This document shows positions 35,694-52,215 of a DNA stretch of 64,000 nt, piece after piece. Within the stretch, counting starts at the first letter, position 1; every line of letters starts with the position of its first letter. Position numbers and translations under genes: made by a program. The stretch covers positions 34,252 to 98,251 of the forward strand of contig JBFZAN010000053.1 in assembly GCA_041309005.1 (NCBI GenBank). The letters are read 5' to 3'. Under the pieces are notes generated by a model. It did not search any database. It was given only the letters and a program-made list of their open reading frames with translations, and was not told where the DNA came from. This DNA is from Candidatus Omnitrophota bacterium. Lineage in GTDB: Bacteria > Omnitrophota > Gorgyraeia > Gygaellales > Profunditerraquicolaceae.

Positions 35694-35721
35694 AAGCCCA
35701 CCCTTTTTTAAGAAAATATAC

Positions 35722-36348
35722 ATGGACGCCGCGCCGGTAAAGGCAATCATTTTTGATTTAGGCAATGTGCTCGTCAGTTTCGACCATTCCATAGCGGCGC
35801 GTAAGATCGCCCCCTTTACCGATAAGACCCTTCCCGAGATATACTCCCTCTTCTTTAACTCTAACATCACCCAGCTCTTTGAGGAAGGAAAGATCGCGCC
35901 CCTGGATTTTTTCGCAGAGGTCAAACACATGCTTGGCGCAAGGCTTGACTACGATGCCTTCCTGCCGATATGGAATGAGATCTTTTTCCTGACCGATGAG
36001 AACCGCAGGGTGTATGCGCTGGCTAAGCGCCTGAATCACCGGTACGCTACGGCGCTCCTGTCGAATATAAATATCCTGCATCTGGAGTATCTTAAAAGTA
36101 ATTTTTCCGTATTCGATGCGTTCGGTAACGTTTTTACTTCTTGTGAACTGGGATCCATCAAGCCGGACCCCTCGACCTATAATGAGGTGCTGCGGTCCCT
36201 GGGGGTAATGGCGAGTGAGGCCTTCTATGTCGACGACAGGCAGGAGCTTATCGACGCGGCGGCCGGCTTAGGGATACGGTCATTTGTGTTTATGGGCGCG
36301 CAGCAGCTGGAAAAGGATCTGTCGGATTGCGGCGTAATCGTCGAATAA
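35722..36348 (+). CDS. HAD-family hydrolase (subfamily IA)
   Basis: Motif I IIFDLGNVL, motif II LLSN, motif III/IV ...YVDDRQELI; start at ATG 35722 rather than the track's upstream ATG. Confidence 0.7.
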   Translation: MDAAPVKAIIFDLGNVLVSFDHSIAARKIAPFTDKTLPEIYSLFFNSNITQLFEEGKIAPLDFFAEVKHMLGARLDYDAFLPIWNEIFFLTDENRRVYALAKRLNHRYATALLSNINILHLEYLKSNFSVFDAFGNVFTSCELGSIKPDPSTYNEVLRSLGVMASEAFYVDDRQELIDAAAGLGIRSFVFMGAQQLEKDLSDCGVIVE

Positions 36349-36349
36349 A

Positions 36350-37084
36350 ATGAAAAGCAGCGTTTACCAGAGACGGTTTTACAGGCGATGGCAGGGCGCG
36401 CGCGATCTTTACAAGGCGCGCGTGGTAATACAGGAGACCGATCTCTACATACTTACGGACAGGCCTGTTGATCGGGATTTCGTCGGGAAGAGGCTGATGC
36501 GTTACCGCGGTCAGATAGAGCGCTATATCCAGAAGGACCGCCGTTTCCTCGCCAGTCTGAAGCCGATAACGCTCGATTCGGATGGTCCCGCAATCATACG
36601 GCAGATGGGTGAGGCCGCCAAAAAGGCCGGGGTAGGCCCCATGGCGGCGGTCGCAGGCGCTATCGCTGGATTTCTGGGCAGGGACCTTTTACGCAAGGGG
36701 TATACAGAGGTAATTATCGAGAACGGCGGCGATATATTTTTAAAGTCTTCAAAGACCCGCCTGGTAGGGATCTATGCGGGAGCTTCTCCGCTATCGCGCC
36801 GGCTCTCTCTGAAGATACGCCCTGAAGACACGCCGTTAGGCGTATGCGCCTCTTCGGGTACAGTGGGCCATTCTTTAAGTTTTGGCCGCGCCGACAGCGC
36901 GGTGGTCATTTCAAAAAACGCCTCCCTCGCGGACGCGGCAGCTACCGCAACCTGCAATCGCGTCGAAGCGAAAGAAGATATGCAAAAGGCGCTTGATTTC
37001 GCGCGCTCCGTAAAAGGGATTACCGGGGCCGTGGTCGTCATGGGGGAAGCGCTTGCCGCCTGGGGCGCCGTTGAATTGGCATAA
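36350..37084 (+). CDS. conserved hypothetical protein (UPF0280/ApbE-like?)
   Basis: GPMAAVAGAIAGFLGRDL...IIENGGDIFL...GVCASSGTVGHSLSFGRADSAVV. The family assignment is tentative. Confidence 0.4.
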   Translation: MKSSVYQRRFYRRWQGARDLYKARVVIQETDLYILTDRPVDRDFVGKRLMRYRGQIERYIQKDRRFLASLKPITLDSDGPAIIRQMGEAAKKAGVGPMAAVAGAIAGFLGRDLLRKGYTEVIIENGGDIFLKSSKTRLVGIYAGASPLSRRLSLKIRPEDTPLGVCASSGTVGHSLSFGRADSAVVISKNASLADAAATATCNRVEAKEDMQKALDFARSVKGITGAVVVMGEALAAWGAVELA

Positions 37085-37164
37085 AAACATTAAGAATACG
37101 GCCCCAAAGGGGTCTGTATGAAAAAATTTTTTTTAAATCCCCGCGTTCCGTCGATAGAAAATAC

Positions 37165-37193
37165 TTGACAAAACATACAGATGTGATAAAAAA
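37165..37193 (+). promoter_or_regulatory. putative sigma70-like promoter (-35 TTGACA; extended -10 TGaTAAAAA)
   Basis: TTGACA at 37165-37170; TG at 37184-37185 and A/T-rich hexamer 37187-37192, 16-nt spacer; ~100 nt upstream of the ATP-grasp gene. Confidence 0.35.
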
Positions 37194-37269
37194 TAAATAC
37201 AATACGTAAAGACTTAAGAAACTTTTGAGGAGGTAGGTCAGCTAAATTGGAAAAACTAGGTACTATATA

Positions 37270-37298
37270 AAGGCTCTGGGTCAAAAGAGCCTTTTTTT
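37270..37298 (+). terminator. intrinsic-terminator-like hairpin (8-bp stem AAGGCTCT/AGAGCCTT, loop GGGTCAAA, then T7) abutting the start codon at 37299
   Basis: Perfect inverted repeat followed directly by TTTTTTT; located between the putative promoter and the first Ddl-like gene. Confidence 0.5.
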
Positions 37299-38294
37299 AT
37301 GCTTATGGCGAAAACAGTCGGATTAACATACGATTTAAAGACGGATTACGAGTTTAAGGATAGCGATCCTCCTGACGCGAACGCGGAGTTTGATCATCCG
37401 GATACCGTTTCTCTTATTGCTTCAGCCATCGCATCAAGGGGCTTTAAGGTAAAAAGGATCGGTAATGTCTCAAGCCTCCTGGAGAATATCGCGGACCTCA
37501 AGGTAGACATCGTATTCAATATATCCGAAGGCGTCTCCGGCAGGAACCGCGAATCCCAGGTGCCTTTATTGCTGGAAATGGCGGGTATCCCTTTTGTGGG
37601 AGCGGATTCCCTGAGTCTCGGGATCTCTCTGGATAAGCTTATGGCAAAAAAGATCTTTATCGCTGAAAAAATCCCCACCCCCAGATTTATCGAAGTCAAG
37701 GATTCCGCCGCGCTTGACTCAGACCACCTTAAATTCCCCCTGATCGTAAAGCCGCGTTTTGAAGGTTCCTCCAAAGGCTTAAGCGAATCCTCGCGCGTGG
37801 AGAATGCCGAAGAGCTCAAGAAGCAGGTCGAATATATCATCTCTACCTATAAGCAGCCCGCGCTGATAGAAGAATTTATACGGGGGGAAGAGTTCACCGT
37901 CGCGCTTATCGGCAACGAGCCTCCTGAAGTGCTGCCGATAGTCCAGATAAAGATAGACGGAAGACTTAAGCTTAACGATAAGTTCTACACCTTCGGCCAC
38001 ATCAAGGACGATAAATTGGAATATGTGTGTCCCGCGAGGGTCTCTCAGGAGTTAAAGCTTGAAATCGGCGAGCTTGCCCGGCGGACTTTCGAAGCGATCG
38101 AATGCCGCGATTTCGGCAGGGTCGATTTCAGGGTCGATGAAAAAGGCAAGCCCTACGTGCTTGAGATAAACCCCCTGCCTTCCTTGTCGTCGGCAGACGT
38201 ATTTATGGTAGTGGCACATCAGCTAGGGCTTTCGTATGAAGATATCATCGGCAGGATATTGCAGGCTGCCCTTACCAGGTATAATTTGAATTGA
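37299..38294 (+). CDS. D-alanine--D-alanine ligase-family ATP-grasp enzyme (paralogue 1)
   Basis: Ddl-like N-domain (KTVGLTYDL...), central GRNRESQVPLLLEMAGIPFVGADSLSLGISLDKLMAKKIF, ATP-grasp C-domain (EEFIRGEEFTVALI, VDFRVDEKGKPYVLEINPLP). Confidence 0.7.
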   Translation: MLMAKTVGLTYDLKTDYEFKDSDPPDANAEFDHPDTVSLIASAIASRGFKVKRIGNVSSLLENIADLKVDIVFNISEGVSGRNRESQVPLLLEMAGIPFVGADSLSLGISLDKLMAKKIFIAEKIPTPRFIEVKDSAALDSDHLKFPLIVKPRFEGSSKGLSESSRVENAEELKKQVEYIISTYKQPALIEEFIRGEEFTVALIGNEPPEVLPIVQIKIDGRLKLNDKFYTFGHIKDDKLEYVCPARVSQELKLEIGELARRTFEAIECRDFGRVDFRVDEKGKPYVLEINPLPSLSSADVFMVVAHQLGLSYEDIIGRILQAALTRYNLN

Positions 38295-38302
38295 GCGCGA
38301 AT

Positions 38303-39310
38303 ATGAAAATCGCTTTGACGTGCAATCTTAAAAAAGAGGATGATTCAAAACCCCCGGATTATTTTTCAGAATTTGATTCCCAGGAGACCGTAAACGCCAT
38401 CACCTCGGCGCTGGAGACCAAGGGCCACAACGTCGATTTTATCGACGTGGAACAGCCTAACCTCTTTACCTTTTTCAAAAAAAATCGAGTCGATATGGTA
38501 TTCAATATCGCGGAAGGCAAAACCGGCAGGTACCGTGAGTCGGAAGTGCCCGCCATACTCGATTATTTGAATATCCCCTACACCGGCTCCAATACCCTTT
38601 CCTTAGCCGTCGCGTTAAATAAAGCGCTTACCAAAAAAATACTGAAAGCAGAAGGTATTCCCACTCCGGCCTTTCAGATCTTCAGCAAGGGCAACGAAAA
38701 GCTCGATGCGGCCCTGCGTTTTCCTCTTATCGTAAAGCCAAACTATGAAGGCTCCGCAAAGGGCATCAATAAAACCAATGTAGTGCATAGTCCGCGAGAG
38801 CTTTTTGACAAGGTCAGGGAGACCATTGATTTTTACAAGCAGGGGGTACTGGTCGAAGAATTTATCGAAGGCAGGGAATTGACGGTAGGGATATTGGAGA
38901 ATGGCAAAGCACAGGTGCTTCCCATCCTGGAGATAGATTTCTCCACCTGCTCCGGGAGCGGCGAGTATTTTTATTCCTGGCGCATGAAAGAATACCAGGG
39001 CAACGCCGAAATGGGACTGACCCCGACGTTTCACTGCCCTGCCAAGCTGGATGCGGAAACAGAGCGCAAGGTCAAAGAGGCGGCGTTAAAGACGCATAGC
39101 GCGATAGGCTGTCTGGATATTTCCCGCACCGATATACGCTTAAGCAGGGACAATATCCCGTATGTCCTTGAGATAAACCCTTTGCCGGGGCTGGACCCCA
39201 AAGAATCCAATTTTCCGATCATGGCGTACGCGGCGGGCATGACCTACGAAGATCTTATTGAGGGCATATTGTTAAATGCCTATAAAAGGAGGAGTCTGGA
39301 AGATGAATAA
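38303..39310 (+). CDS. D-alanine--D-alanine ligase-family ATP-grasp enzyme (paralogue 2)
   Basis: Same architecture as the upstream gene (MKIALTCNL..., SEVPAILDYLNIPYTGSNTLSLAVALNKALTKKIL, EEFIEGRELTVGIL, ISRTDIRLSRDNIPYVLEINPLPGL); ATG 38303 preferred over the in-frame TTG 38291. Confidence 0.7.
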   Translation: MKIALTCNLKKEDDSKPPDYFSEFDSQETVNAITSALETKGHNVDFIDVEQPNLFTFFKKNRVDMVFNIAEGKTGRYRESEVPAILDYLNIPYTGSNTLSLAVALNKALTKKILKAEGIPTPAFQIFSKGNEKLDAALRFPLIVKPNYEGSAKGINKTNVVHSPRELFDKVRETIDFYKQGVLVEEFIEGRELTVGILENGKAQVLPILEIDFSTCSGSGEYFYSWRMKEYQGNAEMGLTPTFHCPAKLDAETERKVKEAALKTHSAIGCLDISRTDIRLSRDNIPYVLEINPLPGLDPKESNFPIMAYAAGMTYEDLIEGILLNAYKRRSLEDE

Positions 39311-40487
39311 TGCGACAGCAACGGATACCCAGAAGTTGCTCGTAGAAAATACAGCCCCTGCGCGCTCAGGCAGGCGGGCGCCGGATTATCAGCAGATAAG
39401 CCTGTACAAAGACGTCAACCCCCTTGAATGGGAGGATTGGCACTGGCAGATGAAAAACCGCATCACTAAACTCGAACAGATCAGCCAGGTAGTTACGCTC
39501 ACCCCCGAAGAAGAAGAGGGCATAAAGAACGCCAAGGGGAGGATGGCGATGGCGATTACCCCCTATTGGGCGACGATGATTGACCCCGAAGATACAAAAT
39601 GCCCCATACGGCGCCAGGCGATTCCCACCAAATACGAATTTGAAATCGGCCCGTATGAGATGACCGACCCTTGCGCCGAAGACAGGGATTCTCCCGCCGC
39701 GCATTTGGTCCATCGTTATCCCGACAGGGTATTGCTGCTTGCGACCGAGCAGTGCGCGATGTATTGCAGGCACTGCACCAGGAGAAGGCTGGTCGGCAAA
39801 GAAGAGACTACGGAAAAAATACTGAATAAGCTCGATGCGGGGATAGAATATGTCAGGAGCAACAAAAAGGTGCGCGACGTGCTTATTTCCGGAGGAGACC
39901 CCCTTCTTCTTGAAGAAGAAGCCCTGGAGGAGCTGCTTAAGAAGATCCGCGCCATCCCCCATGTGGAGCTCTTGAGGATAGGTACGAGGGCCCCGGTGAC
40001 GTTACCGCAACGGATCACCCCGTCCCTGATCGCGATGCTTAAAGAATACGCGCCGATCTGGATAAGTATACATTTCAATCATCCGAAAGAGATCACCAGG
40101 CGGTGTAAGAGCGCCTGCGAAATGCTCGCCGATGCGGGATTTCCTTTGGGGAGCCAGACAGTGCTCCTGCAGGGGATCAACGACCGGCCTTACGTCATGC
40201 GTAAACTTATGCATGAACTCTTAAAAATCAGGGTCCGCCCCTATTATATCTACCAGTGTGACCCCGTAAAAGGGACCAGCCACTTCCGCACCCAGGTTTC
40301 AGTGGGTATAAACATCATGGAAAGGCTCAGGGGCCACACTTCAGGGTATGCGGTCCCGACATATGTGATTGATGGCCCGGGCGGAGGAGGAAAGATCCCG
40401 GTTGGGCCGAACTATATACTTTCCCTGGCAAAGGGAAAATATGTGCTGCGCAATTATAAAGGCAAGATCTACACCTACCTGGAGTAG
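39303..40487 (+). CDS. KamA-family radical SAM protein (lysine 2,3-aminomutase-like)
   Basis: CAMYCRHCTRRR (CxxxCxxC radical-SAM cluster), VLISGGDPLLL, PLP-binding Lys region ...YYIYQCDPVKGTSHFR typical of KamA/EpmB; AAGGAGG RBS before ATG 39303. Confidence 0.8.
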   Translation: MNNATATDTQKLLVENTAPARSGRRAPDYQQISLYKDVNPLEWEDWHWQMKNRITKLEQISQVVTLTPEEEEGIKNAKGRMAMAITPYWATMIDPEDTKCPIRRQAIPTKYEFEIGPYEMTDPCAEDRDSPAAHLVHRYPDRVLLLATEQCAMYCRHCTRRRLVGKEETTEKILNKLDAGIEYVRSNKKVRDVLISGGDPLLLEEEALEELLKKIRAIPHVELLRIGTRAPVTLPQRITPSLIAMLKEYAPIWISIHFNHPKEITRRCKSACEMLADAGFPLGSQTVLLQGINDRPYVMRKLMHELLKIRVRPYYIYQCDPVKGTSHFRTQVSVGINIMERLRGHTSGYAVPTYVIDGPGGGGKIPVGPNYILSLAKGKYVLRNYKGKIYTYLE

Positions 40488-40493
40488 ACGCGC

Positions 40494-41798
40494 GTGCATA
40501 AAAAAGGCCGCATAACGTTTTTTCTGGCGCTCGTCCTGCTTCTGCCGTTTCCCGCCTTCGCGCAACTGAACCCGGAAATCAGACAATATATTGTCAGCCG
40601 CTCGCTGGACATGCTGGAGTCCCAGCATAACCCTCTTGCCCAGGGCGCTTACAATACGTACTATCCCCCGCAGGGTCCAGACGAAGAACCTTACCAGCCT
40701 TCCAGGCCGCCGCGTGACCGGGACGAAGTGGCCGAAGAATACATCATCGAGCAGGAAAATAAGTCTTCCGATACGCTTTATAATTTTATTTTCGGTAACG
40801 GACTGGGGAAACTGTCGCTGGGATTCGAATTAGGCAGCATCAAGGGGGATACCAAATACCGCATCAGCTTCGACAATCCTTACGATATTGGCGGTCACGG
40901 AGAAAGCGAGCTTAAGTGGCCTATCGACACCACGCTGATCGGCCTTTCCGCCGCGCTCCACTACAAGCCGCAGGAAGACAATATGCTTACGCATGACAGG
41001 TTCCGCCTCAGCTTCAAATGGCTTACGAAGGCAGGCAAGAGCAGGGGCAATATGAAAGATTCCGACTGGATCGAGAACGACGTCGGATACATAGATTATA
41101 ACGATGATGGCGTCTTGAACGGCTCCAGCGCCTGGGCGACGAACCATGACGGCCTCGATATATATTCGGAATCGCCGGTAAAGCTGGACGAAGCAAACAT
41201 CTTCGATATCAACTACGTCTATAACCTCTGGGTAAGGGATACGTGGGCGCTGGGGCCCGTACTCGGCTATCACCACCAGAGTTTTAAGTTTTCAGCCTAC
41301 AGCGTGAACCAGGTAGGCTACGGCCCTTACGGCCCCGCCGGGCTTTTTGACCAGAGCTTTCAGGACACCCGCGGCCTTAAATGGGGAGAATATCAGGCGA
41401 GTTATCACGTGCCGTATCTGGGGCTGAACAGCGAGTTCAGCCTGAACGAAAAGCTCTCCTTTCTTATTAACCTGGGGTATTCTCCCTGGGTGAGGATCAA
41501 GGACAGGGATTCGCATCTGTACCCGACTATGGACGAAGCCTTAGGTTATAATGTCGATATGCTTTCTCCCGGCCGGAGCCACGGCAAGGCATTCCTCTTC
41601 GGCAGCGAAGGCAGCTGGAAGCTGGCCCAAGGGTGGTTACTGAATGTGGGCGCTAATTATATCTCCATCAACGCGAAAGGCGACCTCGTCCAGCAGCACT
41701 ATGCTGCCGGCGTCCTGACCGGGGAAAGCGAACCCGTTGATGAAAAAGTAAAATCCAGGTATTGGCTTATCAACGCAGCGCTGCAATACACATTCTAG
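40494..41798 (+). CDS. secreted protein, probable outer-membrane beta-barrel protein
   Basis: Signal peptide FFLALVLLLPFPAFAQ, Gly/Tyr/aromatic-rich alternating strands, C-terminal ...ALQYTF; 7 nt after KamA. Confidence 0.45.
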   Translation: MHKKGRITFFLALVLLLPFPAFAQLNPEIRQYIVSRSLDMLESQHNPLAQGAYNTYYPPQGPDEEPYQPSRPPRDRDEVAEEYIIEQENKSSDTLYNFIFGNGLGKLSLGFELGSIKGDTKYRISFDNPYDIGGHGESELKWPIDTTLIGLSAALHYKPQEDNMLTHDRFRLSFKWLTKAGKSRGNMKDSDWIENDVGYIDYNDDGVLNGSSAWATNHDGLDIYSESPVKLDEANIFDINYVYNLWVRDTWALGPVLGYHHQSFKFSAYSVNQVGYGPYGPAGLFDQSFQDTRGLKWGEYQASYHVPYLGLNSEFSLNEKLSFLINLGYSPWVRIKDRDSHLYPTMDEALGYNVDMLSPGRSHGKAFLFGSEGSWKLAQGWLLNVGANYISINAKGDLVQQHYAAGVLTGESEPVDEKVKSRYWLINAALQYTF

Positions 41799-41828
41799 CG
41801 TCATTCCCCCGCTTTCCTTAACTATTCC

Positions 41829-41857
41829 TTGACCAGCCAAACTTTGCGGTATATAAT
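41829..41857 (+). promoter_or_regulatory. sigma70-like promoter (-35 TTGACC, 17-nt spacer, -10 TATAAT)
   Basis: TTGACC 41829-41834, TATAAT 41852-41857; 61 nt upstream of the EF-G-like gene with GGAG RBS. Confidence 0.55.
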
Positions 41858-41918
41858 TTTTTATTACATGCTCGCCTTTTCTTGCTACGCCGCCTATCCT
41901 CTATAAAGGAGTATAGCC

Positions 41919-43874
41919 ATGGATGCGAACAATAAAAGGAACATTATTTTATTAGGCCACGCCCAGTCGGGAAAGACTTCCCTTGCGGAAAGCATGTTGT
42001 TTGTCTGCAAGGCCGTCGCAAGAAAGGGCTCGGTTACCGACGGAACAACGGCGAGCGATTATAGCTGGGACGAAATAGAAAGAAAAAGCTCCATAAATTC
42101 CGGGCTCCTTAACTGCGAATACAAGGATACGAAGGTCCAGATCATCGACGCGCCGGGATACGCGGATTTCTTCGGCGAGGTTATTTCCGGCTTACGAGCG
42201 GTAGACGCAGCAGTAATCGTGGTGGACGTAAGCGCCGGGATTGAGGTCGGGACAGAACGCTCCTGGCAGATAACGGAAGATTCTAACCTGCCCTGCATTA
42301 TTTTTATCAATAAAACGGACAAGGATGGCGCGGACGTCAATAAAGTATTGGCGGATATCCAGAGCGTATTTTCCAAAAGGGCGGTGATGATCGGCTCCTT
42401 AGAAGACCCTTCGCTCATAGAAGCGATCGCCGAAAGCGACGACAAGCTCCTGGAAAAATACCTGGAAGGCACACAGCTGTCTGCTGATGAGCTGAAAAAT
42501 GGTTTACATCAGGCAGTGGACAGGCGAAAGGTATTCCCCGTGGTGTGCGGCTCTTCCCTTACCGATAAAGGTATACCGGAATTATTGGAAGAGATCGTAA
42601 CCTATATGCCTTCACCGCTGGAGCGGGAAAAAATCGAGGTGACAAATCCCCTCAAGCCGGATGAGCGCAAAGAGATAGCCTTTCGCCAGGACGGCCCGTT
42701 TGCGGCATTTGTGTTCAAGACGATTTCAGACCCGTATGTCGGCCAGCTTACGCTATTACGCGTGTTCTCCGGCGCGCTGGCGGCGAACACGGGGTTTTTT
42801 AACGTCACCAAAAAAACCAGAGAGAGGATAGGCTCTATTTTTATGCTGCAGGGTAAGGAGCAGCGCTCGGTGGACGCCGCAGCATGCGGGGACATCGTGG
42901 CGATCGCGAAATTAAAAGAAACTGCCACTTCGGATTCGCTCGCGGATGAAAAAGAGCAGGTCCTGTTTGAGCCCATCGTGTTCCCGGAGCCGGCCATATC
43001 CGCATCGGTAAAGCCTAAATCGCGAGCCGACGAAGAGAAGATCTCCAGCGTCCTGGCGAAACTCGCCGATGAAGACCCCACCTTTAAAGCGCACCATGAC
43101 CCTCAGACAAAAGAGCTGATTATTTCGGGGCTCGGAGACTTGCATCTTACGGTGATGGTCGGCAGGATGAAAAAAAGGTTTAATGTCGATGTGGAATTGG
43201 GGACGCCAAAAGTTTCTTACAAGGAGACCATAACCAAAAGCGCCAAGGTCCAGGGTAAATTCAAGCGTCAGTCAGGCGGCCGCGGCCAGTACGGGGACGT
43301 CTGGATCCAGATCGAGCCTATGGAAAAAGGCGCAGGGTTTGAATTTGTGGACAAGATTTTCGGCGGCGCTATCCCCAAGAACTATATCCCTTCGGTAGAA
43401 AAGGGCGTTATCCAGGCAATGGCAGAAGGCGCGGTCGCAGGATATCCTATTGTGGACGTGCGGGTGATCCTCACGGACGGTTCGTATCACGAAGTCGATT
43501 CTTCCGATATGGCGTTCCAGAGAGCAGGTTCCATCGCGCTGCGAAAAGCGGTCACGGAAGCCGGCCCTGCATTGCTTGAGCCGATCATGGATGTCGAGGT
43601 GGCGATCCCTGAAGAATTCCTTGGCGCGATTTCGGGCGATATCAATTCCAGGCGCGGCCGAATTATGGGCATGGATGTAAAAGGGAAGTCGCAGGTGGTA
43701 AAAGCAACTGTCCCGCTGGCCGAAATGTTTACCTATGCCAACGACTTGCGCTCCCTTACCGGCGGCAGGGGCTCCTACGCAATGAAGTTTTCCCGCTACG
43801 AAGAGGCGCCCCACAAAATATCGTCCGTAATCATAAACCACTACCAGGCAACTAAGAAACACGAAGAAGAATAG
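41919..43874 (+). CDS. elongation factor G-family translational GTPase (EF-G paralogue)
   Basis: G1 GHAQSGKTSL, G3 DAPGYADF, G4 NKTDK, then EF-G domains II–V (GDLHLTVMVGRMKKRFNVDVELGTPKVSYKETI...; C-terminal ...RGRIMGMD...). At 651 aa it is shorter than canonical EF-G, and the G-motifs are divergent (canonical AHIDAGKTT / NKMD). Confidence 0.7.
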   Translation: MDANNKRNIILLGHAQSGKTSLAESMLFVCKAVARKGSVTDGTTASDYSWDEIERKSSINSGLLNCEYKDTKVQIIDAPGYADFFGEVISGLRAVDAAVIVVDVSAGIEVGTERSWQITEDSNLPCIIFINKTDKDGADVNKVLADIQSVFSKRAVMIGSLEDPSLIEAIAESDDKLLEKYLEGTQLSADELKNGLHQAVDRRKVFPVVCGSSLTDKGIPELLEEIVTYMPSPLEREKIEVTNPLKPDERKEIAFRQDGPFAAFVFKTISDPYVGQLTLLRVFSGALAANTGFFNVTKKTRERIGSIFMLQGKEQRSVDAAACGDIVAIAKLKETATSDSLADEKEQVLFEPIVFPEPAISASVKPKSRADEEKISSVLAKLADEDPTFKAHHDPQTKELIISGLGDLHLTVMVGRMKKRFNVDVELGTPKVSYKETITKSAKVQGKFKRQSGGRGQYGDVWIQIEPMEKGAGFEFVDKIFGGAIPKNYIPSVEKGVIQAMAEGAVAGYPIVDVRVILTDGSYHEVDSSDMAFQRAGSIALRKAVTEAGPALLEPIMDVEVAIPEEFLGAISGDINSRRGRIMGMDVKGKSQVVKATVPLAEMFTYANDLRSLTGGRGSYAMKFSRYEEAPHKISSVIINHYQATKKHEEE

Positions 43875-43887
43875 AAAGAGGTTTTAG

Positions 43888-44589
43888 ATGAAGATAAGCG
43901 TTTTTGCGATACCCGAATTACCCCCCGGCAAATATAATGTAAAAGACAGCCGGCTCGATGAAGTTGACAAGATCACAAAAGCCAAAAAGAAGACATACGT
44001 GCAGGTCGAGCTTGCGGGAGAAGAGGCCATGCTCGAAGCGGATGCGGTACTGACTTTATCCGGCTCTCTCCCCGACCTGGTATTAAAAGACCTGGAATTC
44101 GTTGAAACGCGCTTAAGCCGCGCTGAGCAGGAGCAGGAAAAGGCGATACTCGGTAAATTGAAGACGATCCTGGAAAAAGAAGAGCTTATTTTTAAGGCCG
44201 GCTTAAGCCAGGAAGAATTCCGCATGCTGGCCGGGTATTCACTTATTACCGCGAAACCCGTGGTGGCGGTCCAGAAACAGGAGCTGGAGGATATGCCCGC
44301 GATCCTGGCGAAGGCGCTCAGGGAAAGCGGCTATCTCAGTTTTTTTACTACCGGCGAAAAAGAAACACGCGCCTGGTTGATCAGGAAGGGCGCCACTGCC
44401 TGGGAGGCGGCGGGAGCGATACACTCCGATATCCAGCGGGGCTTTATCCGCGCGGAGATCATCAGCTTGAGCGACTTTATCCAGGCGGGCGGCGAGAACC
44501 AGGCGAAACAGGCGGGAAAATTGCGCCTTGAGCAAAAAGACTACGTGATGCAGGACGCCGACCTCGCTAACTTCCGTTTCAATAAATAA
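43888..44589 (+). CDS. YchF/Ola1-like protein lacking a functional P-loop G-domain (DUF933/TGS-like C-terminal region conserved)
   Basis: The C-terminus ETRAWLIRKGATAWEAAGAIHSDIQRGFIRAEIISLSDFIQAGGENQAKQAGKLRLEQKDYVMQDADLANFRFNK aligns to the YchF C-terminal domain. The N-terminus MKISVFAIPELPPGKYN occupies the place of the Walker A (GLPNVGKST) but lacks it. Only 233 aa against ~363 for YchF. Confidence 0.55.
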   Translation: MKISVFAIPELPPGKYNVKDSRLDEVDKITKAKKKTYVQVELAGEEAMLEADAVLTLSGSLPDLVLKDLEFVETRLSRAEQEQEKAILGKLKTILEKEELIFKAGLSQEEFRMLAGYSLITAKPVVAVQKQELEDMPAILAKALRESGYLSFFTTGEKETRAWLIRKGATAWEAAGAIHSDIQRGFIRAEIISLSDFIQAGGENQAKQAGKLRLEQKDYVMQDADLANFRFNK

Positions 44590-44607
44590 TCTCGAAAACA
44601 TAGGCGT

Positions 44608-46161
44608 ATGATTGAAATCAGGCGTGCGTTGATAAGCGTATCCGATAAGACCGGCATTCTTGATTTAGCGAAAGCGCTGAATCAGTCCGGTGCCGAGATC
44701 ATTTCAACCGGCGGCACGGCAAAGCTGCTTCGCGAACACAATATCCCGGTAAAGGACGTTTCGGCATACACAGGTTTTCCTGAAATACTCGACGGAAGGG
44801 TCAAGACCCTGCATCCGAAAATACACGCGGGGCTCCTGGCGCTGCGCGGGAACCCCGCGCACATGCGCACGCTCAAGGAGCTGGGCATCGGGTTGATCGA
44901 CATGGCGGTGATAAACCTCTATCCTTTTGAGCGGACCGTCGCCAAAACAGGGGTAACCAGAGAAGAGGCGATTGAACATATCGATATCGGCGGGCCTTCA
45001 ATGCTGCGTTCAGCGGCGAAGAATCATCAGTCTGTAGCCGTAGTTTCAGATCCCCGCCAGTACGCACAGATAATCAGGGAATTGCAGGAGCACGCAGGCA
45101 AGATCAGCGAGGATACGGCGAAACGCCTTGCCGCGGAAGTATTCAGGGCGACTTCCGGTTATGACAGCTCGATCTACGAGTATTTTTCTAAAGAAAATGG
45201 GGCTGAGGGCGCTTTTCCCCGGGAATTACGCCTGGCGTTCACGAAATTAAAGGATTTGCGGTATGGGGAGAACCCTCATCAAAAAGCAGCTCTTTACAGG
45301 GCGCAGGGTGAGGCCTCGGGGGAAGGGATTGCCGATGCGCGGCAATTGCAGGGCAAGGAACTCTCTTTCAACAATTTTCTCGACCTGCACAGTGTCTGGG
45401 AATTGCTGAAAGAGTTTGACAATCCCGCTGCCGTGATCGTGAAGCATAATAATCCTTGCGGCGCTGCAGAAGCGAAGAATATCGGCAAGGCTTACCGGGA
45501 TGCGTTCAACTGCGATCCGCTTTCCGCGTTCGGAGGCATCGTGGGGCTTAATCGTCCCGTTGACGCGATAACGGCGAAGAGCATTACGAAAAGCGGCTTC
45601 CTGGAATGCGTCATCGCCCCTGCCTTTAGCAAAGAGGCCTTAAGCTTTTTTTCGCAGAAGAAGAATCTGCGCGTCCTGGAGCTGAAAGACCTCAGGCGCC
45701 GTAAGGAATACGATTTTAAAAAAATGAGCGGCGGCCTCCTGTTGCAGGATAGCGACTCAAGCTTGCTGAATAAGGGCAGCCTTATCGTCGCTACGCGAAA
45801 GAAGCCGACAAAAACGCAGCTGGCTTCTCTCTTGTTTGCCTGGAAGGTGGCAAAGCACGTCAAATCCAATGCCATTATCATCGCGAAAGCCACAAAGACC
45901 GTGGGGATCGGGGCCGGCCAGATGTCAAGGGTCGATTCCGTCCTCATCGCCGGGAAAAAGGCAGCCGGGCGCGGACGTAATACATGTCTTGCTTCTGACG
46001 GGTTCTTCCCAAAACCTGATGCTATCATAGCAGCGGCAAAAATGGGCGTTAAGGCCGTAATCCAGCCCGGCGGTTCTATCGCTGACCGGGAAGTTATCAA
46101 GGCGTGCGATACGCACCGCATTGCCATGGTGCTGACCGGAATAAGGCACTTCAAACACTAA
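44608..46161 (+). CDS. purH: bifunctional AICAR transformylase / IMP cyclohydrolase
   Basis: MGS-like N-domain ALISVSDKTGI...ISTGGTAK and the AICARFT C-domain; 517 aa. Confidence 0.9.
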   Translation: MIEIRRALISVSDKTGILDLAKALNQSGAEIISTGGTAKLLREHNIPVKDVSAYTGFPEILDGRVKTLHPKIHAGLLALRGNPAHMRTLKELGIGLIDMAVINLYPFERTVAKTGVTREEAIEHIDIGGPSMLRSAAKNHQSVAVVSDPRQYAQIIRELQEHAGKISEDTAKRLAAEVFRATSGYDSSIYEYFSKENGAEGAFPRELRLAFTKLKDLRYGENPHQKAALYRAQGEASGEGIADARQLQGKELSFNNFLDLHSVWELLKEFDNPAAVIVKHNNPCGAAEAKNIGKAYRDAFNCDPLSAFGGIVGLNRPVDAITAKSITKSGFLECVIAPAFSKEALSFFSQKKNLRVLELKDLRRRKEYDFKKMSGGLLLQDSDSSLLNKGSLIVATRKKPTKTQLASLLFAWKVAKHVKSNAIIIAKATKTVGIGAGQMSRVDSVLIAGKKAAGRGRNTCLASDGFFPKPDAIIAAAKMGVKAVIQPGGSIADREVIKACDTHRIAMVLTGIRHFKH

Positions 46162-46176
46162 GTATCCCGCCTGAAG

Positions 46177-47544
46177 ATGACCTATCTTGAAGCCATCCAG
46201 TACCTGGACTCTTTTATTAATTACGAAAAAACCCCCCTCGCTTCTTACAAGGAGTCTTGCAAGTTAGAAAGAATAAAGGGATTCCTTGCGGCCTTACGCA
46301 ATCCTCAAGAGCGCTTCCAGAGCCTTCACGTCGCAGGCACAAAAGGAAAAGGCTCCGTATGCGCATTCCTGTCGTATATCCTGAAAGAAGCCGGCTACAA
46401 GGTAGGGTTGTTCACGTCCCCGCATTTATCAAGCGTACGGGAAAGGATCAGGGTCATGCGCGGGCGGACGCAGCCCGGCGGTATAGTCGCCGATGTATTC
46501 GAAGGCATGATAACCGAAAGAGCCCTCGCCGACCTGGTAGAAAGATTAAAGCCGGGAATAGAACAATATAATCGGCGTTCGCGCCATGGGCCGCTGTCAT
46601 TCTTTGAAGTATACACTGCCTTGGCGTTTGAGTATTTCAAGGAGCAGAAAGTTGATTACGCGGTATTAGAAACCGGCCTGGGCGGCCGCCTGGACGCGAC
46701 TAACGTAGTGCAGGCTTTGGTGTGCGGGATCACCCCGGTAAGTTACGACCATACCCGGACGCTGGGCGTGACCCTGACCGAGATCGCCGGGGAAAAGGCG
46801 GGGATTATCAAGGGGCGCCGTCCGCTGGTGGTAAGCGCCGCGCAGGTAAAAGAAGTTGCGGCGGCTATCAGGGGCAGGTGCCGGCAGGTACACGCGCGGC
46901 TGTACGAACTAGGTAAAGAAGTGGTGTGCACGCCCAGACCTGCAGGACGCGACGGGCAGGCCTTTGATATTGACGGGGAGTTCGGCGGGATCAGCGACCT
47001 TAAGATCCGTTTATTGGGAAGCCACCAGCTGGTTAATGCCGCCGAGGCCGTAGCCATGGCACAGGTATTACGCGCGTTCTTTCGCAGCGCTATCAGTTCC
47101 GAAGACATGCGCCGCGGGCTCTATGCCACAGTGTGGCCGGGAAGATTCGAGATTGTGAATACACCTGCTGCAACGGTGGTATTGGACGGAGCGCATAACC
47201 CCGCTTCCGCTCACGCGCTCAAGGAGGCCCTCAGGAGCCGCTTTCCAGGCAATACGGTAGTACTCGTGCTAGGCGTATCCAGCGATAAGGATATCAGGGG
47301 TATTTGTAAAGAGCTCTCGCCCCTTACGGACACGGTGATCTTGACCAGGGCGAATAATCCACGCGCGGCCACGCCGCAGGGCATTCTATGCGAAATGAAG
47401 CGAATGGCGCCGCGCCATAACGTCAGTCTAACAGGGTGCGTCAAAGATGCTTTGGCGCAGGCAAGAGAAAAAGCTGGAGAAAAAGGCATAATCGTTATTT
47501 GCGGTTCGTTGTTTGTGGTAGGGGAGGCGAGGGAATTACTATAG
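46177..47544 (+). CDS. folC: folylpolyglutamate synthase / dihydrofolate synthase
   Basis: HVAGTKGKGS P-loop, ...LETGLGGRLDATN..., Mur-ligase C-domain; 455 aa. Confidence 0.85.
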   Translation: MTYLEAIQYLDSFINYEKTPLASYKESCKLERIKGFLAALRNPQERFQSLHVAGTKGKGSVCAFLSYILKEAGYKVGLFTSPHLSSVRERIRVMRGRTQPGGIVADVFEGMITERALADLVERLKPGIEQYNRRSRHGPLSFFEVYTALAFEYFKEQKVDYAVLETGLGGRLDATNVVQALVCGITPVSYDHTRTLGVTLTEIAGEKAGIIKGRRPLVVSAAQVKEVAAAIRGRCRQVHARLYELGKEVVCTPRPAGRDGQAFDIDGEFGGISDLKIRLLGSHQLVNAAEAVAMAQVLRAFFRSAISSEDMRRGLYATVWPGRFEIVNTPAATVVLDGAHNPASAHALKEALRSRFPGNTVVLVLGVSSDKDIRGICKELSPLTDTVILTRANNPRAATPQGILCEMKRMAPRHNVSLTGCVKDALAQAREKAGEKGIIVICGSLFVVGEARELL

Positions 47545-47573
47545 CCTCGGTTTCAAGTTCTGCACGATCCCAG

Positions 47574-47613
47574 GATAGGCCGGGTAAGGGCATGTTGCCC
47601 GGCCTATTTATTT
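47574..47613 (+). terminator. rho-independent terminator after folC (10-bp stem ATAGGCCGGG/CCCGGCCTAT then TTTATTTT)
   Basis: Perfect 10-bp inverted repeat 47574-47606 with 13-nt loop, followed by a T-rich tract. Confidence 0.6.
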
Positions 47614-47687
47614 TGAGCCTTCCTCTTTAACTCCTTAATCCAAAGAAGCTTAAAATTCTTTATACAGCAAAGATTTTGATAAAATAC

Positions 47688-47715
47688 TTGACTTTTTTTA
47701 AAAATATACTAAAAT
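47688..47715 (+). promoter_or_regulatory. sigma70-like promoter of pilus locus (-35 TTGACT, 16-nt spacer, -10 TAAAAT)
   Basis: TTGACT 47688-47693, TAAAAT 47710-47715, AGGAGA RBS 7 nt before ATG 47753. Same architecture as the promoter at 62209. Confidence 0.5.
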
Positions 47716-47752
47716 ATGACAAATAGTATTAAACTATATCAGGAGATTTTAG

Positions 47753-48406
47753 ATGGGCATTTTCCGGGCAGCGGAAGTGGCTGGCAAATTGAGGATTTCT
47801 AAGCAAACGCTTTTTCGTTACGAAAAAAAAGGCATTTTTCCTAAACCGAGAAGGAACAGGATCAACCGTTGGCGCGAATATAACGAGGAAGAAATACAAA
47901 AAATGAAACAGATCATGGGCAGGGGTTTTACACTGCTTGAATTGATCATAGTAGTGGTGATAATGGGGATCCTGGCTGCCTTGGCCATCCCGCGCTTTGA
48001 AAGTTTCTATACCGTAAAATTGAAGGGAGCGGTGAACAATGTGGTTTCCGACATCCGCTACGTGCAGCAACTGGCGGCCTCCAGCCATGATACCTACAAG
48101 ATGACTTTTTACGTAACTCCCGCCAACAGGTACGAAGTCCAGAAATCAGACAATAGCTACGCGAAGAACCCTTTTGGCCACGGGGATTTTATAATCAATT
48201 TCACAAATGATCCCCAGTATAAAGGGATCGGTATCGATAGCGCGAATATTAACGGAATGAATATCCTGAGCTTCGATTGGAACGGCACGCCCCGGGATGC
48301 AAACGGGAACACCTTGACAGCCGAGGGGCAGGTAAATCTTTCTTATCAAAATGATTCTTTTTCCGTGAGGGTTACGCCTAATACCGGCTGGGTGAGGGTG
48401 CAGTGA
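47753..48406 (+). CDS. type IV pilin/pseudopilin with in-frame N-terminal MerR-like HTH extension (HTH–prepilin fusion ORF)
   Basis: Residues ~8-50 AEVAGKLRISKQTLFRYEKKGIFPKPRRNRINRWREYNEEEI resemble the MerR/excisionase-type HTH. These are followed in the same frame, with no stop, by a textbook class-III signal MKQIMGRG|FTLLELIIVVVIMGILAALAIP (Gly-1, Phe+1, Glu+5) and a pilin-like beta-rich C-terminus. The reading frame was verified codon by codon. Confidence 0.65.
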   Translation: MGIFRAAEVAGKLRISKQTLFRYEKKGIFPKPRRNRINRWREYNEEEIQKMKQIMGRGFTLLELIIVVVIMGILAALAIPRFESFYTVKLKGAVNNVVSDIRYVQQLAASSHDTYKMTFYVTPANRYEVQKSDNSYAKNPFGHGDFIINFTNDPQYKGIGIDSANINGMNILSFDWNGTPRDANGNTLTAEGQVNLSYQNDSFSVRVTPNTGWVRVQ

Positions 48407-48924
48407 AGAATAAAGGCATCAGCCTGATCGAAATGATCATCACGATCGTCATTCTGGGATTGACGATACCCGTTCTTTTGAATATGTGGTCGGACGTAGC
48501 GTTACGATCAGCCCGTTCGGAAGCGCTGGCAGACGCTCTTTTTTACGGACAGCAATTGATGGAGGAGATACAATCAAAGAAATTCGACCAGCATACCGCC
48601 GCGCCCTGGAGCGATACGCTCGGGCCGGATAACGCGGAGACCAGACTAGGCACAGGGAATGCGGGTTTTAATGACGTTGATGATTACAACGGATATTCCG
48701 ACAGTCCCGCGCCAGGCTACAGCCGCTGCGTGACCGTCGATTATGTCGCGCTCAGCGGTACCGCGTGGAACGGAACATGTTCGCCGAATACTCCGTCAGG
48801 CTGCACCCCTGCGTCGTGCACGGCAGGCAATGTGACCGATTACAAACGTATTACAGTCAGGGTGGATCGTAATGACTCCCTGGTAAAAGATATAGTTCTG
48901 GCGCTGGTGGTAAATCCATTTTAG
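48403..48924 (+). CDS. prepilin-type N-terminal cleavage/methylation domain protein (minor pilin/pseudopilin)
   Basis: MKNKG|ISLIEMIITIVILGLTIPVLL with Glu+5; Cys-rich C-terminal region; GTG start overlapping the upstream stop. Confidence 0.6.
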   Translation: MKNKGISLIEMIITIVILGLTIPVLLNMWSDVALRSARSEALADALFYGQQLMEEIQSKKFDQHTAAPWSDTLGPDNAETRLGTGNAGFNDVDDYNGYSDSPAPGYSRCVTVDYVALSGTAWNGTCSPNTPSGCTPASCTAGNVTDYKRITVRVDRNDSLVKDIVLALVVNPF

Positions 48925-48940
48925 AAGGAGGGCTGCGTCA

Positions 48941-49468
48941 TTGCAGGGAAAGCGCGCTCGCTTTAAAAAAGAAGGGGTAACCCTGATAGAGCTGGTGATA
49001 GTGATCGTTATCGTCGGCGTATTAACGGGGGTATCGGCCTTGTATGCCCGGGAGATCGTGGACCTGTGGCGTTTTATTAATTTTCGCAGCGAGATTGTTT
49101 CACAGGGCAGGGCCGCCCTGATGAGGATGGAGAGAGAGATCAGGCAGATCGCGGGTAAGGGGTCGGTATATGCGGCGGGCATTTCGCAATTGCGCTTCCA
49201 TGACATATACGGAAACGATATCCAGTATCAGTGGTTAAGCGACCCCGATCCTTCGATAAAGGGCGCTATCATGCGCAATAACGATATCCTGGTCAAGGGC
49301 GTCGAGAGCCTCGTGTTTAACTATTACGATCAAGATAATAATCCGATCGTTTCTCCTCCTGTCAGTCCGTCGGATACCACCATCAAAAGAATAAGCGTGA
49401 CATTCATAATGCTTGCAGGCGACCAGGAAAAAACGTTGAGCGCGCAGACCTTCCCCCGGAACCTTTGA
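48941..49468 (+). CDS. prepilin-type N-terminal cleavage/methylation domain protein (minor pilin/pseudopilin)
   Basis: ...KKEG|VTLIELVIVIVIVGVLTGV with Glu+5; TTG start 10 nt after the AAGGAGG RBS. Confidence 0.55.
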   Translation: MQGKRARFKKEGVTLIELVIVIVIVGVLTGVSALYAREIVDLWRFINFRSEIVSQGRAALMRMEREIRQIAGKGSVYAAGISQLRFHDIYGNDIQYQWLSDPDPSIKGAIMRNNDILVKGVESLVFNYYDQDNNPIVSPPVSPSDTTIKRISVTFIMLAGDQEKTLSAQTFPRNL

Positions 49469-49504
49469 ACCGGGGCGTTACTTTGATAAAAAAAGGGGGC
49501 CACG

Positions 49505-49777
49505 ATGGCTAAAAAATTTATGTTTGCTTCACTCATCGCGGTATGCCTGTTGCTGGGGATGAGTATGACCCTGAGGGCGCAGAGGCCCCAGGAACAGCCG
49601 GCGGGTACGGATGTCGCAGCGCAGCTTGCCCAGATACGGGCGCAGCTTGAGCAGGTCTCAAATAATGCGGACGCCGCGAACAGGGAAATAGTAAAAAAGC
49701 TGAACGATGTCTTGAGCGATCACGACAAGATATTTAAAGAGCTTGACATTATCAAGGTGAGAGCCAGCCTGAGGTAA
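49505..49777 (+). CDS. small secreted coiled-coil protein
   Basis: Signal peptide FMFASLIAVCLLLGMSMTLRA then helical AAQLAQIRAQLEQV...; 90 aa, sits in the pilus operon. Confidence 0.4.
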   Translation: MAKKFMFASLIAVCLLLGMSMTLRAQRPQEQPAGTDVAAQLAQIRAQLEQVSNNADAANREIVKKLNDVLSDHDKIFKELDIIKVRASLR

Positions 49778-49778
49778 C

Positions 49779-51569: not shown

Positions 51570-51577
51570 GGTGGGAA

Positions 51578-52198
51578 ATGATAACGCTTAAGAAAACAAG
51601 CAAATTTATGCAGGCCGGGCTCCTGTGCCTTGTCTTTTTTTTCGTTCTCGTCGCGCTGTATTTTGCCTGGGGGAGATCTCTTTTTAAGGCCGAGAAGAAG
51701 TTGAAAACGGAATTCAGCCTCAAGCAATCAGAGCTCAAAGAGCAGGAGGTGTTGATCAGGACCGTTCCTGACCCTAAGAAGGCCATCGAAGAGATCGAAA
51801 AAAAGGCGGATGAATTCAAAGATATCGAGGTCGGGAAACGGCAGGTCCCCCGGCTCATCCATCTGCTGGGCAGCGCGGCCGCGGAACACAACATAAATAT
51901 TGTTTCCATAAGGCCGCGGGAGGACATAAAAGTCGCGAATGAGAATCTTCCGTCGGGAGTGACCAAGGTGTATGTCGAGATGGTGCTTGGCTGTCCTTAC
52001 CAGGTGCTGGGCGGGTATTTAGCCGACCTGGGCAAGCTGCCGGTTACCTTTATCATTGAGTCGGTCTCCATAGCGCCCAGGGAAGAAACGGCAACGCCTG
52101 CTCCCGACGCGAAGAAGGCGGCAGTAAGCAAGGGAGAAAGGCCGCAAGAGCTCTTGATAACCCTGCTTTTAAGCACCTATATGATCTATGAAATATAA
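51578..52198 (+). CDS. pilO: type IV pilus assembly protein PilO-like
   Basis: Single N-terminal TM LLCLVFFFVLVALYFAW, coiled coil, periplasmic domain; operon position after PilMN. Start at ATG 51578 after the GAGGTGGG RBS. Confidence 0.55.
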   Translation: MITLKKTSKFMQAGLLCLVFFFVLVALYFAWGRSLFKAEKKLKTEFSLKQSELKEQEVLIRTVPDPKKAIEEIEKKADEFKDIEVGKRQVPRLIHLLGSAAAEHNINIVSIRPREDIKVANENLPSGVTKVYVEMVLGCPYQVLGGYLADLGKLPVTFIIESVSIAPREETATPAPDAKKAAVSKGERPQELLITLLLSTYMIYEI

Positions 52199-52215
52199 GG
52201 TACGGCCGTACGCAT

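Follow-up and report, generated by a model that had tools for sequence, protein, structure and literature searches.

The results presented here concern two adjacent genes on the + strand of a 64,000-nt window of a Candidatus Omnitrophota contig (all coordinates refer to the whole window). The first (41919-43874, +) encodes a five-domain, 651-aa paralogue of elongation factor G (EF-G) that we assign to the EFG II (EF-G2) subfamily, and the second (43888-44589, +) encodes a 233-aa orthologue of YchF, here denoted mini-YchF, which is devoid of the P-loop, switch I, switch II, G4 and G5. We conclude that these are probably two separate, functional and conserved translation-factor genes, one for an EFG II protein and the other for a nucleotide-independent YchF orthologue. 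A preceding interpretation made from the nucleotide letters without database searches (hereinafter, the sequence-only reading) had placed two open reading frames (ORFs) at the same coordinates, which the analysis confirms as ORFs of 651 and 233 aa, tightly spaced on the + strand with 13 nt between them, and had taken both for degenerate relatives of translational GTPases. This holds for the YchF derivative, which has lost its nucleotide-binding elements, but not for the EF-G2-type protein, which by its signature residues is a regular EFG II member. As had also been proposed, both genes belong to families of ribosome factors and are probably co-transcribed.

The family matches of the two proteins are not due to chance (E-values from 1e-34 to 1e-257), and the relatives of both carry the label Candidatus Omnitrophota. 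In the 233-aa protein, Pfam detects PF06071 only (118.5 bits against a cut-off of 27; residues 151-232, profile positions 3-84 of 84), and the G domain (MMR_HSR1) is not found. The YchF equivalog TIGR00092 is failed by a wide interval, at 134.3 bits against a cut-off of 279.2, and distant members of the mini-YchF family score 106-146 bits on the same model. Searches against the PDB return a YchF match at residues 150-232 (97 bits to 1jal) and a weak one at residues 80-129, in the helical domain. The near-intact C-terminal region and the missing Walker A motif that the sequence-only reading had noticed in this gene are thereby borne out.

That reading had suggested an alignment to YchF as a way to delimit the deletion. 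In MAFFT alignments with canonical YchFs from seven phyla, the 233-aa protein can be aligned collinearly with YchF over its entire length, and approximately 130 residues are gone in five blocks that include G1, switch I, switch II, G4 and G5. The first block removes the P-loop, helix 1 and switch I; the second, switch II and the following helix; the third, a loop of about 16 residues; the fourth, about 9-12 residues from the coiled-coil tip; and the fifth, about 62 residues with G4 (NxxE) and G5. A residual ELAG stands at the position of the canonical DIAG (G3, DxxG). The 147 residues that precede the TGS-like domain comprise about 60 residues of the helical domain and about 85 of G-domain remnants, so that the earlier description of a G domain reduced to about 100 aa was right about the reduction and loose about the figure.

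Along the gene, the N-terminal G-domain remnant (residues 1-57; 43888-44058, +) consists of strand beta1, KISVFAIP, fused straight to GK-x4-DxRL. It is followed by the helical (coiled-coil) domain (residues 58-118; 44059-44241, +), the tip of which is about 9-12 residues shorter than the canonical one and lacks the Lys cluster, and by the C-terminal G-domain remnant (residues 119-147; 44242-44328, +), in which the strand KPVV, normally located before the NxxE of G4, leads into the site of the 62-residue deletion. The TGS-like C-terminal domain (PF06071; residues 148-233; 44329-44586, +) is the most conserved part of the protein, with 58-61% identity to the C-terminal domains of canonical YchFs from other phyla. 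We considered the possibility that the PPGK segment was a vestige of the Walker GK and rejected it, given that G14 keeps the canonical G-x5-D spacing to DxRL and corresponds to the Gly after switch I. Compared to YchF/OLA1, an Obg-family P-loop ATPase (1JAL, 2DBY, 2OHF, 8KIE), mini-YchF has the same layout of a core, a helical insertion and a TGS-like domain and retains the DxRL motif and the KPV strand, but it is missing Walker A, switch I, switch II, NxxE, G5 and the 130 or so residues in total; compared to Escherichia coli YchF in particular, it has a shorter coiled-coil tip, without the Lys cluster through which the E. coli protein touches 23S H62.

This reduced architecture is highly conserved. 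The best 120 relatives of mini-YchF are 68-100% identical to it, 116 of these are exactly 233 aa long, and PF06071 is the only Pfam domain in all of them. An exhaustive HMMER search with residues 1-150 against 1.84 billion representatives yielded 146 matches, among which the full-length members are all 225-235 aa long, down to 27% identity; canonical-length YchFs were reached only at E>=1e-4, with the helical domain alone matched. The distant named members are likewise Omnitrophota, and one of them is encoded on a complete genome (CP070684.1). The Walker A pattern is present in 99 of 102 canonical YchFs as opposed to one of the 146 mini-YchF members, where it is a chance match of the regular expression. 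Across 33 diverse members, the N-terminal half contains invariant or nearly invariant residues, namely K2, K15, D20, R22, K34, L64, D68, L95 and P124.

The ratio of nonsynonymous to synonymous substitution rates (dN/dS), which the sequence-only reading had proposed to examine, indicates that the remnant evolves under purifying selection. The estimate comes from a single comparison, with the 85% identical copy at locus L089, relatives at 62-73% identity being uninformative due to saturation of dS; it amounts to 0.10 for the entire protein and, by region, to 0.12 (residues 1-145), 0.06 (first 60 codons) and 0.05 (C-terminal domain). An AlphaFold2 model built on the 33-member alignment has a mean predicted local distance difference test score (pLDDT) of 95.1 and a predicted template modelling (pTM) score of 0.84, and its N-terminal part contains strands at residues 2-6, 14-18, 34-43 and 53-57 and a helix at 21-30. 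When this model was compared to the PDB with Foldseek, YchF/OLA1 structures (1jal, 5ee0, 2ohf, 1ni3) were recovered with query-normalised template modelling scores of 0.80-0.84, the next match being Rbg1 at 0.42; no other NTPase fold was found among the matches, so the alternative fold at the N-terminus that the sequence-only reading had allowed for did not materialise. Mini-YchF is a conserved and probably functional protein rather than a decaying remnant.

Several contigs and proteins that plainly belong with these Omnitrophota genes (L006, L007, L009, L012, P0296 and P0325) are titled Margulisiibacteriota, Planctomycetales, Deltaproteobacteria or Patescibacteria, which are probably taxonomic mislabels or binning errors. 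Mini-YchF itself goes by different names, being a 'DUF933 domain-containing protein' at NCBI and a 'ribosome-binding ATPase YchF' at JGI. Full-text searches of the literature, which included DUF933 as a term, returned no description of a P-loop-less YchF or of an Omnitrophota YchF, and the analysis of Atkinson 2015 has no Omnitrophota data. Thus, mini-YchF is apparently an undescribed variant of a known family.

Partly eroded YchFs exist in other Omnitrophota. Among the canonical-length proteins that are most similar to the helical domain of mini-YchF, we found a cluster of 335-aa YchFs (P0261/P0535, also P0534 and P0536; HAZ09640.1, MBU1328645.1), which NCBI labels 'redox-regulated ATPase YchF' or 'DUF933 domain-containing protein' of Candidatus Omnitrophota. 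These proteins retain Walker A (GPAQSGKTT), an NxxE-like NLEE, the G5 region and a full-length helical domain, and lack switch I and DxxG/switch II; they score 186 bits on TIGR00092, below the cut-off, and show only PF06071 in Pfam. The genes (L174, 8001-9008; L175, 4487-5494, encoding P0535) are arranged in the order pseudopilins - YchF(335) - purH - folC - mnmE - folE, and a 1.19-Mb contig with mini-YchF (L004) shows the order EF-G2-type - YchF(233) - purH - folC - mnmE - folE. Because the two genes occupy the same slot ahead of purH-folC-mnmE-folE, the 233-aa gene is the positional orthologue of the ychF gene of the phylum; on this ground, the same genomes are unlikely to encode a canonical YchF as well. 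With the phylum label, the genomic position and the sub-threshold TIGR00092 score in common with mini-YchF, the 335-aa form looks like an earlier or intermediate step in the process that eroded the G domain of mini-YchF.

A second candidate for a transitional form, the 339-aa protein at L015 (5833-6852), which is 33% identical to mini-YchF and has a Walker A motif, was rejected when a homologue search led to a Hydrothermia-like group of 339-344 aa (P0407-P0424), one member of which is named 'DUF933 ... [Candidatus Hydrothermia bacterium]'. In this group, Walker A is present in 18 of 18 proteins, switch I is missing, DxxG and most of the G domain are kept, the TIGR00092 score is 186 bits, and the G domain is not detected by Pfam. 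Its C-terminal domain (AWL, DIQRGF) resembles that of mini-YchF, and both fall below the cut-off and have lost switch I; by its motif content and affiliation, the group is an independent, milder case of YchF degeneration in a different phylum.

Turning to the upstream gene, Pfam identifies GTP_EFTU, EF-G_D2, EFG_III, EFG_IV and EFG_C in the 651-aa protein, that is, all five EF-G domains. Among the NCBIfam models, the best match is NF009381 (PRK12740.1-5; 855.4 bits, cut-off 583), from the PRK12740 model cluster that also contains 'EF-G2'; the EF-G equivalog TIGR00484 is passed (681.9 bits, cut-off 659.4), and NF009377, the equivalog for 'EF-G-like protein EF-G2', is failed (595.4 bits, cut-off 890). 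The protein was correctly seen to be shorter than EF-G, by about 40 aa. Its alignment with Thermus thermophilus EF-G splits into two pieces, with query residues 2-157 matching chain residues 8-163 and query residues 165-639 matching 215-688. The gap corresponds to about 44 residues lost from the G' subdomain and explains why the protein is short; at the junction (42375-42416, +), query residues 157-165 stand in place of residues 163-215 of the T. thermophilus protein. Compared to EF-G-2 (1wdt), the G' subdomain is also about 40 residues short, and the deletion corresponds to 'indel region III' of EFG II.

The G1 and G4 motifs, which had been described as non-canonical in the sequence-only reading, turn out to be ordinary: the P-loop GHAQSGKTS (41955-41981, +) fits both GxxxxGK[ST] and the EFG II consensus GhxxxGKT, and NKTD (42309-42320, +) is a canonical NKxD, both being in accord with the published EFG II consensus. 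The actual deviations, which had escaped notice, are, besides the G' deletion, the replacement of ERGITI by ERKSSI in G2/switch I (42078-42095, +), where Thr has become Ser as in the 'RxxSI' variant of EFG II, and the substitution of Tyr (Tyr81) for the catalytic His in G3/switch II, DAPGYADF (42147-42170, +), where DxxG itself is retained. The loops at the tip of domain IV, RQSGGRGQYGD and GSYHEVDSS (43266-43505, +), are intact and are identical in 117 and 111, respectively, of 120 orthologues. These 120 EF-G2-type proteins are 642-665 aa long and 73-77% identical to the query, with one at 100%; D.PGY.DF is present in all of them, and E.ER[KR][SN]SI in most, and the G' deletion is conserved among them too.

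According to Margus et al. 2011, six residues separate EFG I from EFG II (type I) and seven are conserved only in EFG II (type II), and EFG II is marked by the G1 GhxxxGKT, a loosened G2 (xxxSx, including RxxSI variants) and deletions that often affect G'. When these diagnostic positions were mapped through the alignment with T. thermophilus EF-G, the 651-aa protein showed the EFG II state at all six type I positions (G16, L25, S61, T291, G333 and K/R352 in 1WDT numbering) and at six of the seven type II positions, with R for K at the remaining one. The EFG I signature A19, T28, T64, I316, A360 and G379 (T. thermophilus numbering) is replaced by G, L, S, T, G and K, and the EFG I hallmarks RGITI and the catalytic His by RKSSI and Tyr. 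Five of the six type I residues and the Tyr are kept in 116-120 of the 120 orthologues, position 291 being S, N or T. The G domain is nearest to that of T. thermophilus EF-G-2 (1wdt; 150.6 bits compared to 127-135 for EF-G), which reads DAPGYGDF at G3 and shares GHAxSGKT with the 651-aa protein. By these signatures the 651-aa protein, in which G1, DxxG, NKxD, G5 and domain IV are intact, is a regular EFG II (EF-G2) member and thus of an already known kind.

The EF-G2 proteins of T. thermophilus (1WDT) and Mycobacterium smegmatis (9K10) are alike the Omnitrophota protein in the G1 GHxxSGKT, the Ser of switch I, DAPGY, the G' deletion and the six type I residues. The differences are found at G4, with NKxD in the 651-aa protein as opposed to TKLD in both EF-G2s, in the greater size of the G' deletion compared to 1WDT, in the missed NF009377 cut-off, in domains II-V that are oddly close to EFG I, and in slow evolution. 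Specifically, identity to T. thermophilus EF-G, an EFG I protein, reaches 48% in domains II-V, which score higher against it than against EF-G-2, and across deep Omnitrophota lineages the EF-G2-type protein shows 66% identity compared to 58-60% for PurH. EFG II is usually described as fast-evolving. With respect to activity, M. smegmatis EF-G2 carries the same His to Tyr change and lacks ribosome-dependent GTPase activity, which T. thermophilus EF-G2 retains. By analogy with the family, the 651-aa protein most likely would bind GTP and the factor site of the ribosome, show altered GTPase activation and have an accessory or specialised role.

The two genes are followed by purH (44608-46161, +), which encodes AICAR transformylase/IMP cyclohydrolase and is a conserved downstream neighbour of ychF in Omnitrophota, and by a folC-like gene of the Mur ligase family (46177-47544, +), probably the last gene of the operon within the window. 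The spacers are 13 nt (43875-43887, +; with a Shine-Dalgarno-like AAAGAGG before the mini-YchF start), 18 nt and 15 nt, and no terminator-like sites were found between the four genes; together, the short spacers and the lack of such sites suggest a single operon, so that the four genes are probably transcribed together. The strong promoter mentioned in the sequence-only reading corresponds to a sigma-70-like candidate, TTGACC-17 nt-TATAAT (41829-41857, +), which is a consensus match only, with 11 of 12 hexamer positions, and is the top-scoring site within 41500-47800. An Rfam scan revealed no leader or riboswitch near the two genes, and no paralogue of either protein was found in the 64-kb window. 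Identical copies are present in three NCBI metagenome-assembled genomes (GCA_041308925.1, 041309165.1 and 041309085.1).

With regard to mechanism, the most likely interpretation is that mini-YchF works constitutively, binding the ribosome or RNA independently of nucleotides. The five deletions have excised every nucleotide-binding element, and a minimal beta-core would hold the shortened helical domain and the unchanged TGS-like domain; judging from the sequence and the predicted structure, such a protein would be unable to run the ATP cycle of YchF. The most economical reading places the selected activity in the TGS-like domain and in the cleft between this domain and the helical one. The nucleotide switch may have become dispensable, perhaps along with the high-affinity 50S anchor whose release it would have served. 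E. coli YchF binds the 50S subunit at uL14/bL19/H62, mainly via the helical domain and its Lys-rich tip, and its ATPase activity probably is not needed for subunit dissociation but only for the release of YchF from 50S (Yu et al. 2025). The same study suggested a site for the TGS domain at 16S h5 on stalled ribosomes.

Several observations speak against parts of this interpretation. The E. coli residues that contact 50S are deleted or changed in mini-YchF (K159 to E82, E166 to G89, N174 to K97 and L181 to A104, with K149/152/156 located in the deleted tip), which makes binding to the ribosome in the known mode doubtful. The loss of nucleotide binding is deduced from motifs and a model, and a conserved Lys, K15, is located right at the scar of the excision. 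As for the upstream gene, 66% conservation and a passed EF-G equivalog cut-off would also fit a housekeeping EF-G.

The latter possibility, that the 651-aa protein is the sole EF-G of these bacteria and a housekeeping translocase in EFG II guise, is the best surviving alternative, and we consider it unlikely but by no means far-fetched. Besides the TIGR00484 score, the affinity of domains II-V to EFG I, the intact decoding loops of domain IV, a conservation level above that of PurH across deep lineages, the strong promoter-like site and the name 'elongation factor G' at both NCBI and JGI are all compatible with it. However, the EFG II state at each of the six type I positions argues in the opposite direction, as does the lack of a str operon (rpsL-rpsG-fusA-tuf) context: no ribosomal protein gene or tuf was called at the loci with listed neighbours, and the flanks are kamA-like or omptin-like genes and ychF-purH. 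Furthermore, some close relatives (L014 and four metagenome loci) do not have the gene where it is normally found. In a 2011 survey of 305 complete genomes, none of them from Omnitrophota, every single-copy EF-G belonged to EFG I, which was judged indispensable; we treat this as a lead only.

A broader scenario can be put forward tentatively, as one that we find unlikely on the whole. Under this scenario, most Omnitrophota would have no nucleotide-binding YchF, the protein having shrunk stepwise from 363 to 335 to 233 aa into an ATP-independent module of helical and TGS-like domains that keeps the function of YchF. In much of the phylum, translation of this module would be coupled to that of a slowly evolving EFG II-type GTPase, which would either supply the energy-dependent step of ribosome splitting or rescue or itself be the sole EF-G.

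Another reading, which appears rather improbable, is that the two proteins form a functional pair, mini-YchF serving for example as an adaptor or anti-association module free of nucleotide, with the EF-G2-type GTPase driving its ribosome cycle in trans during splitting or rescue. The gene order lends this idea some appeal. In a scan of JGI metagenomes with an alignment of seven N-terminal sequences as the query, the EF-G2-type gene was directly upstream of mini-YchF in 61 of the 67 informative loci of the clade of the window, with a kamA-like gene abutting in four and another context in two; among the GTDB genome loci, it is directly upstream in seven, which are most of those with a visible upstream gene, and a kamA-like gene abuts in L014. 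The spacer has a median of 15.5 nt over 60 loci, five of which have overlaps of 1-4 nt. In two deep lineages (L171 and L173; mini-YchF 42-43% identical), the trio EF-G2-type - mini-YchF - purH is kept between different flanks, in one of them with a 4-nt ATGA overlap of the first two genes. By contrast, neither purH nor a homologue of EF-G occurs within 6 kb at any of the 70 canonical ychF loci in other phyla. In addition, a ribosome-splitting role has been proposed for YchF, EF-G promotes both splitting and the drop-off of peptidyl-tRNA, a site for the YchF TGS domain has been suggested at 16S h5, and domain II of EF-G contacts h5/h15.

However, the adjacency is missing in four deep lineages (L086, L087, L170 and L172), where the gene upstream of mini-YchF is gltX-like, a peptidase U32 gene, unannotated or a divergent aminotransferase gene, and in at least five loci of the same clade, where kamA abuts. 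The P-loop-bearing 335-aa orthologue has no EF-G neighbour either, and purH and folC are linked to mini-YchF as tightly or more so, which points to inherited operon structure rather than a specific partnership. Accordingly, the sequence-only proposal of a special unit of two genes is not established by these data. The linkage of ychF with purH(-folC) is older and more general, and the link with EF-G is frequent and tight but not universal.

Some details of these neighbourhoods are worth recording in their own right. At L014 (4714-6702), L117, L155, L157 and L160, where a kamA-like gene abuts mini-YchF, the EF-G2-type gene is gone from its usual place. The kamA-like gene of L004 (5756-6942) matches in three successive frames, so it either carries frameshifts, that is, is a pseudogene, or reflects errors of long-read assembly. 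A small gene for a GIY-YIG nuclease (85 aa; 4029-4286) lies between mini-YchF and purH in L171. Where the link with EF-G is absent, the neighbours of mini-YchF are repeatedly related to RNA or translation: a gltX-like gene is directly upstream in L086, which also has two small MerR-HTH (helix-turn-helix) genes after mini-YchF, and RluA-type pseudouridine synthase genes are found 8 nt downstream in L170 (6713-7453; S4 + PseudoU_synth_2) and, on the opposite strand, within 4.5 kb in L087 (12485-13183), where the peptidase U32 gene is located about 270 nt upstream of mini-YchF.

Still another possibility, and a very improbable one, is that mini-YchF continues to bind a nucleotide or another phosphate ligand at a site rebuilt from K15, D20, R22 and K34 and remains a regulated switch. 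These residues are nearly invariant across the family, one close relative recreates A-x4-G-K-S at the scar, and the titles of the OsYchF1 and AtYchF1 structures point to binding of varied nucleotides in the family, including ppGpp. However, D20 and R22 belong to the ancestral DxRL motif that is also present in canonical YchFs, and the canonical spacing of G14 likewise indicates that this segment is inherited rather than rebuilt; moreover, the glycine-rich loop, the Ser/Thr that coordinates Mg2+, the helix-1 dipole and the base-recognition elements of G4/G5 are all absent. Finally, the view of mini-YchF as a pseudogene in decay or an artefact of annotation, which the sequence-only reading had entertained and for which one could cite the failed YchF equivalog cut-off and the loss of all G motifs, is refuted and has a negligible chance of being true, given an intact ORF, unchanged in start and length, in 116 of the 120 closest relatives as well as at all loci examined, the constant length in more than 140 cluster representatives across the phylum, the divergence to about 30% identity without loss of frame, the conservation of K2, K15, D20, R22 and K34 in 33 members, the dN/dS of 0.10 (0.12 in the remnant half) and the pLDDT of 95.

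The reading that we favour, with two separate functional genes, puts mini-YchF in a peculiar place among proteins that have lost their catalytic function. Pseudo-GTPases and other pseudoenzymes conserve a fold under selection after the loss of catalytic and nucleotide-binding motifs, and the described pseudo-GTPases mostly retain a full G-domain fold with mutated motifs. In mini-YchF, by contrast, the motifs have been physically excised, and the protein is an orthologue of a near-universal core gene of bacteria. YchF/OLA1 is among the most conserved bacterial proteins, and neither its core function nor the part played by its ATPase has been settled. The Omnitrophota protein would represent a natural separation-of-function variant, which argues for a selected activity in the helical/TGS part and provides a direct test of the proposal that ATP hydrolysis is needed only for the release of YchF from 50S (Yu et al. 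2025). The EF-G part is of lesser importance: it extends the known EFG II subfamily to Omnitrophota, where its conservation is unusually strong.

There are also implications for genome surveys. A 2025 survey of ribosome biogenesis reported YchF, one of the BAC120 markers, in 99.4% of the genomes outside the Candidate Phyla Radiation (CPR) and in 97% of the CPR genomes, as overall frequencies, and it found few ribosome-biogenesis factors in Omnitrophota, with a caveat on sampling. Surveys based on KO would count mini-YchF as YchF, whereas the TIGR00092 threshold would not, and such misses could depress marker-based estimates of completeness for Omnitrophota.

The remaining observations concern the surroundings in the window. 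Positive GC skew in 30 of the 32 bins of 2 kb, together with the location of nearly every long ORF on the + strand, suggests that the entire window is part of one leading-strand arm of the replichore. The only RNA genes are three tRNAs, tRNA-Arg(ccg) at 1905, tRNA-Val(tac) at 17407 and tRNA-Asp(gtc) at 17817. Upstream of the EF-G2-type gene, a + strand cluster (33580-40487) encodes an M20/M28 peptidase, PAC2, a HAD hydrolase, an AbpE-like protein, two ATP-grasp enzymes similar to D-Ala-D-Ala ligase and a KamA-like protein, a homologue of the radical SAM lysine-2,3-aminomutase; the cluster is syntenic in relatives and looks like a set for the biosynthesis of beta-lysine or small peptides. Between kamA and the EF-G2-type gene, and in this lineage only, there is a gene (40494-41798) for a 434-aa protein of the Omptin family (PF01278) that resembles outer-membrane proteases; the same slot holds an unrelated 284-aa gene in L004 and nothing in other relatives. 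Downstream of the operon lies a type IV pilus/T2SS-like cluster (47753-59980). The product of its first gene (47753-48406) is a fusion of a MerR-type HTH and a prepilin N-methylation motif, and the genes that follow encode two further pseudopilins, a PilM-PilN fusion, a secretin, a coiled-coil protein, a tetratricopeptide repeat (TPR) protein, T2SSE, T2SSF and a histidine kinase.

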